IMG/VR virus record: IMGVR_UViG_2623621010_000003
Length of the DNA stretch: 20,000 bases
Direction: 5' to 3' (one strand)
From: an uncultured virus (IMG/VR IMGVR_UViG_2623621010_000003)
Taxonomy: Duplodnaviria; Heunggongvirae; Uroviricota; Caudoviricetes
Made by a program: the position numbers and the translations under genes. Below are positions 1,928 to 18,235 of the stretch, piece after piece. The notes beneath the pieces are model-generated. The model was given only the letters and a program-made list of their open reading frames with translations, ran no database searches and was not told the DNA's origin. Numbering within the stretch: position 1 is the stretch's first letter; every line of letters begins with the position of its first letter.

Positions 1928-2275
1928 TTAATCAAAAAGTTCTGGATAATCCGTCAGTGCTCTTAAGCAAGTTGCGTTTCTGCCAGTTTCTTCCAGTTCA
2001 CTTTTGGTTGAGAATATACCAACACGAGTTGCATTCCCCATTGTGGTTTCACCATATTGAGCTATACATTGTTTGCTCATTTGGAAAATAGCTTCAGCAA
2101 CTTCGCTGTTCGCGCTTTCTTCATCAAGGTTACATTGTGATTTGATAGTCATCATATAACCTAAGATATCTGCATTATCCTTACAATCATCTAAAGTTAG
2201 ATTATCCAAATCCAAAGCCCATGTATTCATAGCTATTAATGCTAATAAAGTAGTAAATATAGCTTTTAGTTTCAT
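1928..2275 (-). CDS. Secreted 4-Cys hypothetical protein (moron)
   Basis: 115 aa with a Sec-type signal (MKLK-hydrophobic-TWA/L) and 4 Cys in the mature part. GAGGG RBS, AT-rich upstream spacer and its own terminator, inserted in the tail operon. Confidence 0.8.
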   Translation of the reverse strand: MKLKAIFTTLLALIAMNTWALDLDNLTLDDCKDNADILGYMMTIKSQCNLDEESANSEVAEAIFQMSKQCIAQYGETTMGNATRVGIFSTKSELEETGRNATCLRALTDYPELFD

Positions 2276-13912: not shown

Positions 13913-14392
13913 TCAACTCGGTAATTGACTGTTTAAAGTTCCAAACTTCCCACTTTGGGTGGCTTTCTTTGCTTCTTCTGCTTTTGATTCTTTCTTGCCT
14001 TTATCGGCAACCTTGCCATGTACATAAGGCAGCGCGGCCTTAGCAGCATTCACCCGCATGAACATGTCATCGCTTTTATTCATCACATCAATGAGAAACT
14101 GCAGCGGATCATCTTTGGCGTAGTTCTCATCATCCAAAGGGTTGTCATTTTCCCCACTATCCACTGAGTTAACTTTTGGTTTTTCTGGAGTTAACTTTTC
14201 AGGTTTAGAAGTTAACTTTTTGACTGATTTAAATTGTTCTATATATGCAATTACTTCAGGGATTTTTGCTAATTTTGAACCCTGCTGCATTGCAGATTTT
14301 TCACTGTATCCTGCTGAAATTGCAGCATCTTTATTGCTCATACCATCAACAACAGCTTGAGCAAAAGCTTTCATTTTTGCTGTTAAAGCCAT
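13913..14392 (-). CDS. terS: Terminase small subunit
   Basis: N-terminal HTH LTAKMKAFAQAVVDGMSNKDAAISAGYSEKSA, then DPLQFLIDVMN...RVNAAKAALPYVH. AAGGAG RBS. Confidence 0.92.
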   Translation of the reverse strand: MALTAKMKAFAQAVVDGMSNKDAAISAGYSEKSAMQQGSKLAKIPEVIAYIEQFKSVKKLTSKPEKLTPEKPKVNSVDSGENDNPLDDENYAKDDPLQFLIDVMNKSDDMFMRVNAAKAALPYVHGKVADKGKKESKAEEAKKATQSGKFGTLNSQLPS

Positions 14393-14423
14393 TGCGACTC
14401 CTTAACTCTAAAAGTTAACTTTT
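14167..14423. repeat. Four copies of AGTTAACTTTT (14167, 14189, 14210, 14413)
   Basis: Exact 11-mers read directly. The last lies in the perfect palindrome AAAAGTTAACTTTT (14410-14423). Confidence 0.85.
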
Positions 14424-14427
14424 AACT

Positions 14428-14512
14428 AAAAAGGGAAATTTTTTTATACGTGAGATGGGCGGTGGTGTCCGCTGATAAATGATTTTGAACTTTTTACCTC
14501 CCCCCTCCCAAC
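14428..14512 (-). other. Putative cos/packaging initiation region
   Basis: HNH-terS intergenic region. Minus strand has a G-run (GGGAGGGGGGAGG), a GC-rich core CGGACACCACCGCCC and an A-tract, the layout expected for HK97-like cos phages. The exact cut site cannot be determined. Confidence 0.55.
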
Positions 14513-14533
14513 GGCGATGAGCTCTTTTTTCAA

Positions 14534-14818
14534 TCATAGTCTGCTCTCCTGCTGGGTTTTCTTCTTATGGCAGTCAATGCACAACGACCAAAGATTGCTT
14601 GGGTCATCTGTTCCACCTTGCGCCGTGTTGATCTTATGGTCACATTCCAATTGATGTGTGACTAGACCACAGAGTTGACAGGTATAACCATCACGTACAT
14701 GGATGCTTTCTTTTAGTCTACGCCAAGGGCGACCACCACGACCTGTTCCCCAGTTTTTCTTGGGTTCAGTCTGTTGACGGCGTATCTCTAGCCTTGGCTT
14801 AAGTGTCTGTAGTTTCAT
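14534..14818 (-). CDS. HNH endonuclease (terminase cofactor, HK97 gp74-like)
   Basis: RDGYTCQLCG...CDHKIN...GGTDDPSNLWSLCIDCHKKKT, directly upstream of terS. Confidence 0.95.
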   Translation of the reverse strand: MKLQTLKPRLEIRRQQTEPKKNWGTGRGGRPWRRLKESIHVRDGYTCQLCGLVTHQLECDHKINTAQGGTDDPSNLWSLCIDCHKKKTQQESRL

Positions 14819-14829
14819 GGGGCAAACCC

Positions 14830-15066
14830 TTAGTCATCATCCAAGTTACGTGATTGTGGTTCATCCTCATCGCCAACGATCTCATCGAGCAGCATGCGGA
14901 TCTGTGCAGTCTGGTCACTGTTGATTTGTATGAGTTGGTTGTTCTGTTGGATCAGTTGATTGGTTTGATCGGTCAGTTTGTTGTTCTGTTCCACCAACTG
15001 ATTGTTCTGCTGTACCAGTTGTAAGACGATTGATTGCAAGTTGCAGTCGTTGTTTGCTGTACTCAT
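14830..15066 (-). CDS. Gln/Asn-rich heptad-repeat (coiled-coil) small protein
   Basis: 78 aa, LVQQNNQ-LVEQNNK-LTDQTNQ-LIQQNNQ-LIQINSD. Stops 11 nt before the HNH start. RBS is weak. Confidence 0.6.
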   Translation of the reverse strand: MSTANNDCNLQSIVLQLVQQNNQLVEQNNKLTDQTNQLIQQNNQLIQINSDQTAQIRMLLDEIVGDEDEPQSRNLDDD

Positions 15067-15115
15067 ACATTGCCTTTAGTTTTTGACGGCGTTCTTCACA
15101 GCCTTTGCAAGACAT
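14915..15115 (-). CDS. Small hypothetical protein with N-terminal CxxC (MSCKGCEERR...)
   Basis: Start re-called at ATG 15115 with GAGGTG RBS, downstream of the terminator. 66 aa. Confidence 0.65.
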   Translation of the reverse strand: MSCKGCEERRQKLKAMYEYSKQRLQLAINRLTTGTAEQSVGGTEQQTDRSNQSTDPTEQPTHTNQQ

Positions 15116-15129
15116 AGACACCTCGGAAT

Positions 15130-15170
15130 AAAAAAGAAAAACCGCACCAACTTTCTCAAGCAGTGCGGTC
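15130..15170 (-). terminator. Intrinsic terminator upstream of the packaging module
   Basis: Minus strand ACCGCAC-(15 nt)-GTGCGGT-TTTTCTTTTTT. Confidence 0.65.
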
Positions 15171-15203
15171 TTATGTGCCGTAATCCATTCGGCCAAGGAG
15201 AAT

Positions 15204-15226
15204 AAAAAACCACCCGAAGATGGTTT
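15204..15226 (-). terminator. Intrinsic terminator after the TonB_C gene
   Basis: Minus strand AAACCATC-TTCG-GGTGG-TTTTTT (cUUCGg loop). Confidence 0.8.
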
Positions 15227-15295
15227 ACTTACAATTTAAAAGATTGTCAGATTTAGTTCATTCAGACTGGTAAAATTTAACTGTTTAAATAACAA

Positions 15296-15943
15296 CTAGT
15301 CGATCGTATTTGAGTCTTCAGAAAATCTAAAAGAACTAGTAATACGTATAGGATATGGCTTACCATTAACAATTAATGGATAAAAATTAGCCTGCTTACG
15401 ATATTCATTTAAAGCATAATTATCCAATTCTGGTAATCCACTACTCACTTTAATCTCAGATTTGGTTAAATTTCCATTATCATCAGCTTCTGCATATATT
15501 CCAACGTATAAGGTTTGACCTTCAAGCTTTTGCTTCACAAAAAAGAATTTCGGATAATGTTTATATTTAGGCTCTCTTGAAACCTCTAATAAAAAAGGTT
15601 GTACTGCTCTAATAGGATAATAAATTCCATTCTCTTGATAAGGCTGAAATTTAGAACGCTTTACTGCATTTAGTACTTTTGTGTCTATTGATTCAAGCCC
15701 ACTACTTTCTATTACTTCTGCGGATTTAATAATACCATTTGCATTCGTCTTAAACTCAACCCTCACTATTCGGTCATATCCTAAAAGCTCTCTATTCTTG
15801 AATTTTATTATTGGTGCTCTTTGCCATTTTACGCCTTTCGGTTGTTCTTTAATGGTTTGGACATCCTGTGCATTCGCAGTGAAACTCAGACAAAAAATCA
15901 GGCCTATTAGGGTTTTAAATAAAATATTCATTATAAATTTCAT
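15296..15943 (-). CDS. Secreted protein with two TonB C-terminal domains
   Basis: Signal peptide ending in ANA/Q, then two repeats of V....NG....V..SSG...D...L......F.P...NG..YPIR. No SxxxH transmembrane anchor or Pro-rich linker. Start may be 15931. Confidence 0.8.
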   Translation of the reverse strand: MKFIMNILFKTLIGLIFCLSFTANAQDVQTIKEQPKGVKWQRAPIIKFKNRELLGYDRIVRVEFKTNANGIIKSAEVIESSGLESIDTKVLNAVKRSKFQPYQENGIYYPIRAVQPFLLEVSREPKYKHYPKFFFVKQKLEGQTLYVGIYAEADDNGNLTKSEIKVSSGLPELDNYALNEYRKQANFYPLIVNGKPYPIRITSSFRFSEDSNTID

Positions 15944-16077
15944 GTAGATAATGTTTTATGATCTTTAAAAGATTAGCACTATAGAATAAAAACAGTTTGC
16001 AATAAAATATTATTTTTTCTTTTAATTAATTCAACTCTAATTGAAAACAAAAGATCTGTTTATTTAGAGGTGTTCTC

Positions 16078-16239
16078 TTAACCAATGAACCATATAAATC
16101 CAATCAAAACTATCAACCCAACTATACCCGCTGCCATCCATTCTGATTTTGGATAGCCGATTAAATTATTTGAGTTGCTATAGTCAGGTCGTTGTCGATC
16201 AGTGTTATTTTTCTTGTTATGTAAATTATCTACTTTTAG
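16078..16239 (-). pseudogene. Startless gene remnant with a C-terminal transmembrane helix
   Basis: 53 open codons ...NLIGYPKSEWMAAGIVGLIVLIGFIWFIG*. In-frame TAA at 16240-16242 and no usable 5' start; abuts a hairpin. Confidence 0.45.
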
Positions 16240-16243
16240 TTAC

Positions 16244-16265
16244 AACCCTACATCCGCAGGGTTTT
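16244..16265. terminator. Hairpin/terminator after the 119 aa ORF
   Basis: Minus strand AACCCTGC-GGAT-GTAGGGTT. The T-run is better on the plus strand. Confidence 0.5.
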
Positions 16266-16284
16266 GAAAATTAAGTAGTAACTT

Positions 16285-16644
16285 TCATGCTGGCGCATTA
16301 AACCAATTTGGATTTGTCTCCATCAACTCACCGTTAGAAAAAGAAACCTGTCTAAAATTTTGGCTTATTAATGGTTCGCCATTTTCCCCTTTCAAGTTGT
16401 ATCGTTTACTGAGTTTCAGAGCAAGCTGATTAGAGCGAACGATCAAGCCTGAGTAAGTAAAGAAATCGTTTGGGTTTAAATATCTCAATGCATTCCAAAC
16501 ACCCATCATCTTAAAGTTTTGTTGGATGACGGCTTCTACTAATTGTTGAACAGATGAAATAAGGTTTTCAATTCTCCGTACAATATTTACCATGTCATAA
16601 ATATTAAATTTAATTACGAATCGCCATGCTTTATATATTTGCAA
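16285..16644 (-). CDS. Hypothetical protein, possibly a 5'-decayed gene
   Basis: 119 aa ORF from TTG with in-frame stops upstream. The true start is uncertain. Confidence 0.45.
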   Translation of the reverse strand: MQIYKAWRFVIKFNIYDMVNIVRRIENLISSVQQLVEAVIQQNFKMMGVWNALRYLNPNDFFTYSGLIVRSNQLALKLSKRYNLKGENGEPLISQNFRQVSFSNGELMETNPNWFNAPA

Positions 16645-16772
16645 TTCTGTTTCTACTCTTCATTGCATACCATTACAGACTTGATCAAGCTTCAGGAATT
16701 GGTCAATTCCTCTTATACCTTATCATTCTGTTAATAGTGGTTTGCATAAGAAGTGCTTGGCGTGTTCTGACA

Positions 16773-17060
16773 TTATCTTCTTAGGAAATTTTGATCTTCT
16801 TTATCCTCGAATTTCCTTTCACAATACTTATAGTTCTCTTCCTTACTTACATGACCATTAGCATGTACGCAGGAACAAAATAAAATTGCCTTGTTGTAAG
16901 GAATACTTTCAGGAACATCTACTCCATAACATTTCGAGTCAATATCTGACAATCGATTAGCAACTAACCACTTCCCAGAATAAAATGGATATGCAAACCC
17001 ACCAACTACCATGAGAAAGAGAACAATAATAGGAAAATTATTTTTTATGTAATTAATCAT
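16773..17060 (-). CDS. Small membrane-anchored 4-Cys protein, paralog B
   Basis: 95 aa. N-terminal TM helix, then CYGVDVPE...FCSCV...KEENYKYC. Confidence 0.8.
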   Translation of the reverse strand: MINYIKNNFPIIVLFLMVVGGFAYPFYSGKWLVANRLSDIDSKCYGVDVPESIPYNKAILFCSCVHANGHVSKEENYKYCERKFEDKEDQNFLRR

Positions 17061-17133
17061 TTGATTCTAAAAGATACTAAGTGAATGTGTTGGAGTATTA
17101 AATACTGTACTAAGACTCTGAAGAATTAAAAAT

Positions 17134-17418
17134 CTAGTCTTTAAAAATATCAAATATCGAAGGTTTAGATTTGGCTTCATCTATGCATGAAACTATTTTT
17201 TCTTCTTTGGGTCTAAAATCGTTGGGATTCTTTACACAATCACAGTAACTATCTAGCTTATTTTTTTCCAAGTTCTCAGGAACTGGAACACCAGAGCAAT
17301 CCTTTATATAGCCAACTTGTGGCGAGATCTTCACTCCCTTGTACATAAGGTATGGAATAAATAAGACGATTAAAACTAAAACAAATACTGGAAGGTTATT
17401 ATATATTTTACTTCGCAT
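17134..17418 (-). CDS. Small membrane-anchored 4-Cys protein, paralog A
   Basis: 94 aa from ATG 17418, which aligns with the start of paralog B. N-terminal TM helix, then CSGVPVPE...YCDCV...KEEKIVSC. Confidence 0.8.
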   Translation of the reverse strand: MRSKIYNNLPVFVLVLIVLFIPYLMYKGVKISPQVGYIKDCSGVPVPENLEKNKLDSYCDCVKNPNDFRPKEEKIVSCIDEAKSKPSIFDIFKD

Positions 17419-17442
17419 ATTTTTCTCAATGATCACTAATAC

Positions 17443-17473
17443 ACAAAAAGCCCATCGATTGATGAGCTTTTGT
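17443..17473 (-). terminator. tR'-like terminator of the late leader
   Basis: Minus strand AAAAGCTCATC-AATC-GATGGGC-TTTTTGT, about 35-65 nt after the predicted late start site. Confidence 0.85.
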
Positions 17474-17513
17474 CTTTGGTCTCGGTAGAACCGTAATACG
17501 ACCAGTATAGAAA

Positions 17514-17542
17514 AATATACCTTTAAATCTGGGACTATGCAA
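17514..17542 (-). promoter_or_regulatory. pR'-like late sigma70 promoter
   Basis: TTGCAT (17542-17537), 17-nt spacer, TATATT (17519-17514), immediately after the Q-like stop codon. Confidence 0.75.
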
Positions 17543-18235
17543 TCACAAATCGTATTCTTCAGCCACTTTAAAGAAATACCCTCTTAAATGCGCATCAAGG
17601 TCGAGTCGCCAATCATCCAACTTACTTAAAGCAAATTTTTCATATTGATCATACGTTTTTAAATATGCTTTTCGATCAATCGTCATGCATGAAATCCGAT
17701 GCCGTTCAGACTGGTTATATGCATTCTCCTTTTTGCCTTCACACTTGCTGCATTCGATATGCTTATTTTCAGCTTTAGAAAACACAAAGCCCTTACCATT
17801 GCATTTAGTGCATATTCCTCGCTTAAATAGAAACTGGATTAATGCTGAACGTGCAACTCCTTTAGCTGCATCTTTGGTAGTAATTTGCTTTGTCTTAAAA
17901 CCATCTTCTTGGAATTTTAAGCGGATCTCACTGGTTAATAAATTGTGCAGTAAAGCAAAGTGTCTATCTGTTGGGCCTGTCGATCTCACAAGTGCCCAGA
18001 GCATCGCACATTGTTCTGTTGCCATATCTTGCATCATCAATCCTGCACTATTGGCTTTGCTACCAAAATTAGATGATCCTCCAACATTATCTTTAAAACC
18101 ATCCATCGTTTTCTGTGCAAGATCAAGCAAAGTAAAATCTACAGAGGAAACACTTGGTGTGAATAATAAACGACGTAAATCATATGTGATTGCTAATTCT
18201 CTATGCTTTTCAAAACCTGCTTTTGCAGCATTCAT
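17543..18235 (-). CDS. Late antitermination protein, lambda Q-like (zinc finger)
   Basis: 230 aa with CTKCNGKG-x12-CSKCEG. Located after the resolvase and before a promoter-terminator leader. Confidence 0.75.
   Translation of the reverse strand: MNAAKAGFEKHRELAITYDLRRLLFTPSVSSVDFTLLDLAQKTMDGFKDNVGGSSNFGSKANSAGLMMQDMATEQCAMLWALVRSTGPTDRHFALLHNLLTSEIRLKFQEDGFKTKQITTKDAAKGVARSALIQFLFKRGICTKCNGKGFVFSKAENKHIECSKCEGKKENAYNQSERHRISCMTIDRKAYLKTYDQYEKFALSKLDDWRLDLDAHLRGYFFKVAEEYDL

Follow-up and report, generated by a model that had tools for sequence, protein, structure and literature searches.

An anchorless protein of two TonB_C domains encoded by an Acinetobacter prophage, a candidate decoy for TonB boxes

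The window analysed here is a stretch of 20,000 nucleotides from a 75-kb virus record, and its carrier is a siphovirus-type Acinetobacter prophage. On the minus strand, a slot bounded by a Q-like gene upstream and by packaging genes downstream holds a gene for a protein with two TonB_C domains (the twin-TonB_C protein), two small membrane-protein genes and the remnants of two further genes. The features of the slot are, in the direction of reading:

17543..18235, minus strand: Q-like gene, upstream boundary of the slot (phrog_127, E 0.0011; a weak label)
16773..17436, minus strand: two small low-GC genes, also within the slot, for predicted membrane proteins without a known family (open reading frame list; Pfam, TIGR and PHROG searches)
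16216..16553, minus strand: 3' remnant of an ORF6N-type antirepressor gene (comparison with prophage L059)
15120..16217, minus strand: module 97.8% identical to prophage L059, with differing flanks (comparison with L059)
16078..16217, minus strand: 3' remnant of a DUF4236-type gene, with 351 bp missing at 16216/16217
15296..15943, minus strand: twin-TonB_C gene, 215 aa; a start at the second Met (15931) would give 211 aa
15866..15943, minus strand: predicted Sec signal peptide, residues 1-26, with an A-N-A cleavage motif and neither His nor lipobox (by sequence inspection)
15581..15838, minus strand: TonB_C domain 1, residues ~36-121, with 41-44% identity to the C-terminal domain of the host TonB encoded in tonB-exbB-exbD
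15317..15580, minus strand: TonB_C domain 2, residues ~122-209, with 31-34% identity to host TonB and a conserved helix signature peculiar to it; one clade family-wide
15207..15226, minus strand: intrinsic-terminator-like hairpin, ~70 nt past the twin-TonB_C stop
13913..14818, minus strand: HNH endonuclease and terminase small subunit genes, downstream boundary of the slot (Pfam, PHROG)

The slot between the Q-like gene and the HNH and terminase genes is hypervariable. Prophage L059 shares a 1.1-kb module with the window at 97.8% identity, in the same Q-terminase slot, and none of ten prophages with a related Q-like gene has a TonB-like domain downstream of it in the DNA fetched. At 16216/16217 the window lacks 351 bp that are present in L059 and in contigs from two sequencing runs (X15 and X19; matching loose ends occur in X18 and X20). 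This gap, which is a natural deletion or an assembly artefact, takes away the 5' part of the DUF4236-type gene. The shorter start of the twin-TonB_C gene, at the second Met, is the call used for many database members of the family.

A sequence-only reading of this DNA had described the gene as AT-rich, followed by its own terminator and placed between Q and the packaging genes. Its GC content is indeed 32.3%, against 42.9% in the head-tail genes. A terminator scan returned four sites, with 1.2 expected, and these include the stem at 15226-15207, in agreement with a terminator of its own; the wider region of 107 nt around the stem folds no better than shuffles (z -0.97). As for the position, the HNH and terminase small subunit genes confirm the packaging side, but the Q label on the other side is weak. 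No consensus promoter was found upstream of the gene (the scan gave 9 sites, with 12.2 expected), and Rfam gave no matches over 14400-17600. The best Fur-like boxes in 23 upstream regions matched at 10-13 of 19 positions and none stood above shuffles, and four tonB-operon controls failed likewise. Four RNA runs gave no contig across the gene, each of them with just 6-15% of the words of the region and with the carriers not shown to be present. Being accessory and of low GC content, with its own terminator-like stem and in a variable prophage slot, the gene has the genomic features of an exclusion moron.

Other genes of the same record deserve mention. A 78-aa Gln/Asn-rich repeat coiled-coil ORF stands before the HNH gene (14830-15066, minus strand; phrog_11566, function unassigned there), and a low-GC, signal-peptide-like gene of no family lies between the tape measure and tail genes (1928-2275, minus strand). 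Outside the window, the 75-kb record (G000:C1) contains a P2-like second prophage and a toxin-antitoxin-like pair, both labels being recognised from sequence.

The two TonB_C-like repeats seen at first reading were confirmed by profile and by fold. The models of the TonB_C domain family (PF03544 and TIGR01352) each match the protein in two stretches and above the curated cut-off, Pfam TonB_C with 63.9 bits (E 1.9e-17; cut-off 24.6) and TIGR01352 with 56.7 bits (E 2.2e-15; cut-off 27.1). The AlphaFold2 model, built from 17 sequences, has a mean pLDDT of 85 and presents the same TonB-like series of strands and helices twice. TonB C-terminal domains fill the top rows of its Foldseek search, and residues 38-122 superpose on residues 153-233 of E. 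coli TonB in the BtuB complex (2GSK_B; Z 9.8, rmsd 2.1, 79 residues aligned). The rows of the fold search cover mostly domain 1, and the assignment of domain 2 derives mainly from the HMM matches and from 32% identity to host TonB. The domains abut with zero linker, as seen in L029, a copy with 99% identity, and are 30% identical to each other. Among the family rows domain 2 is the more conserved of the two, and it has a conserved helix and aromatic signature of its own. A PHROG search of the protein gave no match, a BFVD search none with E <= 0.001, and the A4 profile none among PDB sequences.

By inspection, the N-terminus consists of a basic n-region, a hydrophobic core of ~12 residues and A-N-A, followed by Gln27. 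A-x-A-type cleavage motifs are present in most family members, also by inspection, and a lipobox is absent from all 29 family rows. The best 19-residue hydropathy of the query is 2.08, little under the 2.31-2.39 of host TonB anchors. The protein is likely exported by Sec and cleaved, which would leave it soluble in the periplasm. The absence of an SxxxH anchor and of a Pro-rich spacer, both claimed from the window alone, extends to the family in the first case: in 28 of the 29 rows the first 30 residues contain no His, and the remaining row is truncated at its N-terminus. As to the spacer, Ala26 is separated from Trp40 by a stub of 13 residues; the corresponding stretch is ~130 residues or longer in host TonB, where the domain begins at ~166-205 and where most rows have a ...GH... 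anchor and a spacer with 15-22% Pro. No exbB- or exbD-like genes were noticed beside family members in the loci viewed. Because it lacks the His anchor and its stub is too short to span the periplasm, the protein would be no true transducer, and the predicted anatomy rules out an ordinary one. The YP motif of E. coli TonB was rejected as a discriminator; it is absent from the phage protein, but from the host Acinetobacter TonBs too.

Comparison with the genus was made in 247 species genomes of Acinetobacter, where the best matches outside the family are single domains. All 20 of the best non-family matches that were opened are anchored, spacer-bearing TonBs with exbB- and exbD-like genes next to them (labels recognised from sequence). 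From the operon layout given in the available text of PMC3859900, we infer that this host tonB-exbB-exbD is a tonB3-type system. Domain 1 of the prophage protein has 41-44% identity to the TonB tip of this operon, against 29% to a chromosomal double-domain protein described below. In its last strand, 9 of 11 residues are identical to host TonB. The last strand of the TonB C-terminal domain is the strand on which the TonB box docks in the established structure, and across the family it is variable in both domains. A quick tree (quick search only, 99 rows by 86 columns) places all second domains of the family in one clade (SH-aLRT 100), which groups apart from the chromosomal doubles. The same tree does not resolve the branching among first domains, so we claim neither a donor nor an order of duplication.

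All named homologues belong to Acinetobacter. A scan of viral contigs gave 24 loci of the family, many of them near-identical and thus not independent, two frameshifted and one cut at the contig end; 23 of the 24 lie in an accessory slot before the tape-measure gene, amid shuffled small exported proteins. In the genomes, with at most nine candidates scored per genome, full-length matches were found at 12 places in 10 of the 247. Four of these places are clear prophages (L059, L060, L066 and L026) and one is a probable prophage (L061), while the remaining seven are low-GC islands or single insertions, where the DNA fetched contains no structural genes of phages. Besides the slot before the tape measure, prophages carry the gene between Q and terminase (window and L059), after the tape measure (L066) and after the lysis genes (L026). 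GenBank phages contributed four records, all under 60% identity and none covering 80%, and plasmids only single-domain matches of 45% on four very large records. The survey of homologues proposed by the sequence-only reading places them in prophages and also outside them, with 7 of the 12 genomic places being chromosomal islands or insertions.

Selection on the family was estimated from dN/dS over the mature protein, which is 0.11-0.53 in the 14 informative pairs of 15, the fifteenth having one change of each kind; the pairs overlap and the distant ones are saturated. Frames and signal peptides are intact across 37-61% identity and in several phage lineages, and broken copies occur at L022, L024, L116 and L117. 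Judged by this record of sequence, the twin-TonB_C gene is a mobile and selected accessory moron, enriched in prophages and not restricted to them. In loci L002-L024, the stretch between the tail tube or chaperone gene and the tape measure is an array, densely packed and shuffled, of genes for small exported proteins and for lipoproteins, most of which have no Pfam family. The proteins of this array are candidates for further exclusion or immunity factors.

The family also has relatives that carry the tip of TolA. Some homologues of 300 aa have a third domain that matches Pfam TonB_2 and groups with host TolA tips in the quick tree. A free-standing TolA-III-like protein, likewise matched by TonB_2, has a predicted signal peptide and 28-34% identity to host TolA tips, and the top six Foldseek matches of its model are all TolA-III (best 4G7X_B, E 5.4e-6), the folding alignment having included four host TolA rows. 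Its gene occupies the tail accessory slot of Acinetobacter prophages; in two of seven prophage loci it is directly behind the twin-TonB_C gene (L021:6676-7098 and L125:6713-7135), and in the other five the twin-TonB_C gene is absent from the DNA fetched (L128-L132). A fused TonB-TonB-TolA-III chain is intact in five loci and broken in two, all of one chromosomal island lineage, and in L114-L120 a lipoprotein with one TonB_C domain comes after it. This island (L114-L121) has a triple TonB in L121. A lipoprotein form of the TolA-III-like protein (124 aa; L079:1405-1779 and L133-L145) gave 22 matches in 21 of the 247 genomes; 13 loci were viewed, one of them near a phage Mu-F-like gene remnant, and a search of viral contigs with this lipoprotein as query returned none. 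Tips of TonB and TolA that are detached, adjacent and fused are what a decoy kit would be expected to look like. We take their co-occurrence as modest evidence, because many genes crowd the slot and a single event probably gave rise to the fusion.

The reading that we favour, with a probability of roughly 45%, is that the twin-TonB_C prophage protein acts as a soluble periplasmic decoy for TonB boxes. After Sec export the signal peptide would be cleaved and the protein set free in the periplasm. There it would capture by beta-strand augmentation, as its fold and the 9 of 11 shared residues of the last strand suggest, the TonB boxes of outer-membrane transporters or of incoming bacteriocins. 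With no coupling to ExbBD, the complex would be a dead end in which no pulling takes place, and the entry of TonB-dependent phages and bacteriocins would fall. The pairing of domains might confer avidity or else two specificities, and the TolA-III-like neighbour might play the same role on the Tol route, both points being speculative. The lysogen would in this way be protected from TonB-dependent invaders.

Free TonB C-terminal fragments in the periplasm are dominant-negative in E. coli, and in the literature searched we found no paper that shows this effect. Receptors are available to such a decoy, as the host that carries the 99%-identical copy has 16 with a plug domain. According to the accessible parts of PMC7391070 and PMC11658791, the tips of TonB and TolA are beta-augmentation docks exploited by colicins and phages, and the partial text consulted also states that group B bacteriocins bring their own TonB box. 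The decoy proposed by the sequence-only reading is thus supported in part: the gene is a mobile and selected moron, domain 1 closely resembles the host TonB tip and a TolA-III-like partner exists, but the family is not prophage-only and anchorless doubles are common on chromosomes. A wider kit, in which detached soluble or lipid-anchored TonB tips (single, double or triple) and TolA-III tips, sometimes joined in one Ton-Ton-Tol chain, shut both energised entry routes by mimicking the motor and not by plugging the receptor, is conceivable and on balance rather unlikely.

The range of invaders that such a decoy could meet must also be considered. In the available text of a review of A. baumannii phages the capsule is the commonest receptor and TonB is unmentioned (PMC10057898), and no TonB-dependent Acinetobacter phage was found in the literature searched. 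The receptor protein of T5 leaves the TonB box unchanged on binding, according to the accessible text of PMC9586334; use of a receptor therefore does not imply dependence on TonB, and phages of this sort would escape a TonB decoy. Blocking of all receptors would cost iron uptake, and tonB3 may be required for growth (PMC3859900, available portion); capture of the TonB box that bacteriocins bring themselves would avoid this cost. The accessory slots encode dozens of unrelated exported proteins, the majority of them outside any Pfam family, so that the shared location of the TolA-like gene counts only weakly in favour of a decoy. In the available part of a pangenome paper, btuB variants are associated with CRISPR types, and no more (PMC10038342).

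Anchorless TonB_C proteins are not confined to the prophage family. A chromosomal family of anchorless doubles (L088 type, 245-254 aa), on which no paper was found, has matches in 38 of 101 genomes, with housekeeping neighbours in the three copies viewed (L088:1162-1899, L086 and L072). It resembles the prophage family in having a signal peptide and two TonB_C domains, but differs in its interdomain linker of ~25-30 residues, its domain identity of 18-31%, its housekeeping setting in those copies and its presence in so many genomes. A second chromosomal type of anchorless double, of 226 aa, occupies one conserved site in three genomes, again with housekeeping neighbours (L069-L071). Among the 150 best matches from the library, proteins that combine a signal peptide with 1-9 TonB_C repeats are frequent. 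Three to nine repeats are seen in the predicted exported proteins P0108, P0141, P0154, P0155, P0180 and others of the representative library. Because chromosomal doubles and repeat proteins are common, soluble TonB_C modules are not inherently phage weapons.

This abundance, of chromosomal doubles of both types as well as of repeat proteins, speaks for a role to the benefit of the host, in which the soluble pair would stabilise, time or signal through TonB-dependent receptors, as a plug chaperone or by displacing a signalling domain, and would improve or tune uptake as a fitness moron of the prophage. The available text of PMC11658791 describes a FecA signalling domain displaced by a soluble TonB fragment, which is a precedent for it. 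However, the prophage family forms a separate clade (domain 2, SH-aLRT 100) and is 29-31% identical to the chromosomal double, in none of the loci viewed was a gene for a TonB-dependent receptor noticed next to it, and no Fur-like box rose above shuffles, though the tonB-operon controls failed too. We consider such a modulator unlikely.

Improbable as well is a repurposed module for strand capture, which would keep the TonB fold for other periplasmic partners, such as phage ejection proteins, contact-dependent or type VI effectors or lysis proteins, and serve in an immunity-like way. The neighbours of the gene are mostly small exported proteins, including ecotin, Sel1-repeat and DUF3298 proteins, and the helix and aromatic signature of domain 2, its own and more conserved than domain 1, would fit a partner of another kind; the TonB homologue FusB binds ferredoxin (solved structure 9HI3). 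Domain 1 nevertheless is still very TonB-like, docking strand included, and no other partner was identified.

It is quite improbable that the gene is near-neutral cargo, a captured host fragment barely expressed and hitchhiking in a recombination hotspot. The lack of a consensus promoter, the remnants of broken genes upstream and the four broken copies agree with it, but dN/dS is far under 1 in close pairs, and the retention of frames and signal peptides over such divergence in several phage lineages contradicts it. Highly implausible is an accessory protein that works as a true energy transducer and keeps its N-terminal anchor uncleaved. The database label 'energy transducer TonB' and the fairly hydrophobic N-terminus of the query would point to it, but the protein fails both the anchor and the spacer test: it has no His and a 13-residue stub, with A-x-A-type motifs in most members and no exbB or exbD noticed alongside.

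Returning to the decoy reading, its truth would imply that Acinetobacter faces TonB- and Tol-dependent invaders, so far poorly described, and would bear on the influence of prophage content on iron uptake and on the outcome of phage therapy. Even if it fails, many Acinetobacter labels of 'energy transducer TonB' would sit on proteins unable to be transducers, and the family would be a small, testable handle on the unexplained anchorless proteins with TonB_C repeats. No description of the family was found in the openly accessible literature searched. In the texts as available, a TonB-dependent receptor is all that a study of A. baumannii prophages mentions (PMC6193963), a review of superinfection exclusion covers only Cor/FhuA (PMC11436027), PMC3978071 contains no mention of TonB and PMC11209303 none of TolA. 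The twin-TonB_C family is real, accessory and apparently undescribed.

Among known systems, the closest likeness is to the C-terminal domain of host TonB (TonB3-type; 2GSK_B, 6I97_D and 9DDZ), with Z 9.8-10.7 and rmsd 2.1-2.4 over ~80 residues. In contrast to host TonB, the prophage protein has no His anchor, no Pro-rich spacer and no exbBD, is a tight tandem pair, and is accessory and prophage-associated. TonB9 and TonB10 of Bacteroides thetaiotaomicron likewise have two TonB_C domains in one chain, but they are chromosomal. A preprint states, in the part available, that dual TonB domains seem limited to Bacteroidetes (10.1101/2023.07.07.548152). The Acinetobacter prophage family and the chromosomal doubles, as predicted here, contradict this limit, and dual-TonB_C proteins would extend beyond Bacteroidetes even if the decoy reading fails. 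With Cor and T5 Llp the protein shares small size, phage origin, an orientation towards the periplasm and an action on TonB-dependent receptors, which is shown for Llp and proposed here. Membership in the Cor/Llp group was rejected, as none of the 29 family rows has a lipobox and no Cor/Llp match was found in Pfam or PHROG. According to the accessible text of PMC9586334, Llp is a lipoprotein that jams the plug of FhuA and does not contact the TonB box, whereas the twin-TonB_C protein is a TonB homologue without lipobox. If the decoy reading is true, it would be a natural dominant-negative TonB, and its route of exclusion, unlike that of Cor/Llp, could cover many receptors at once.
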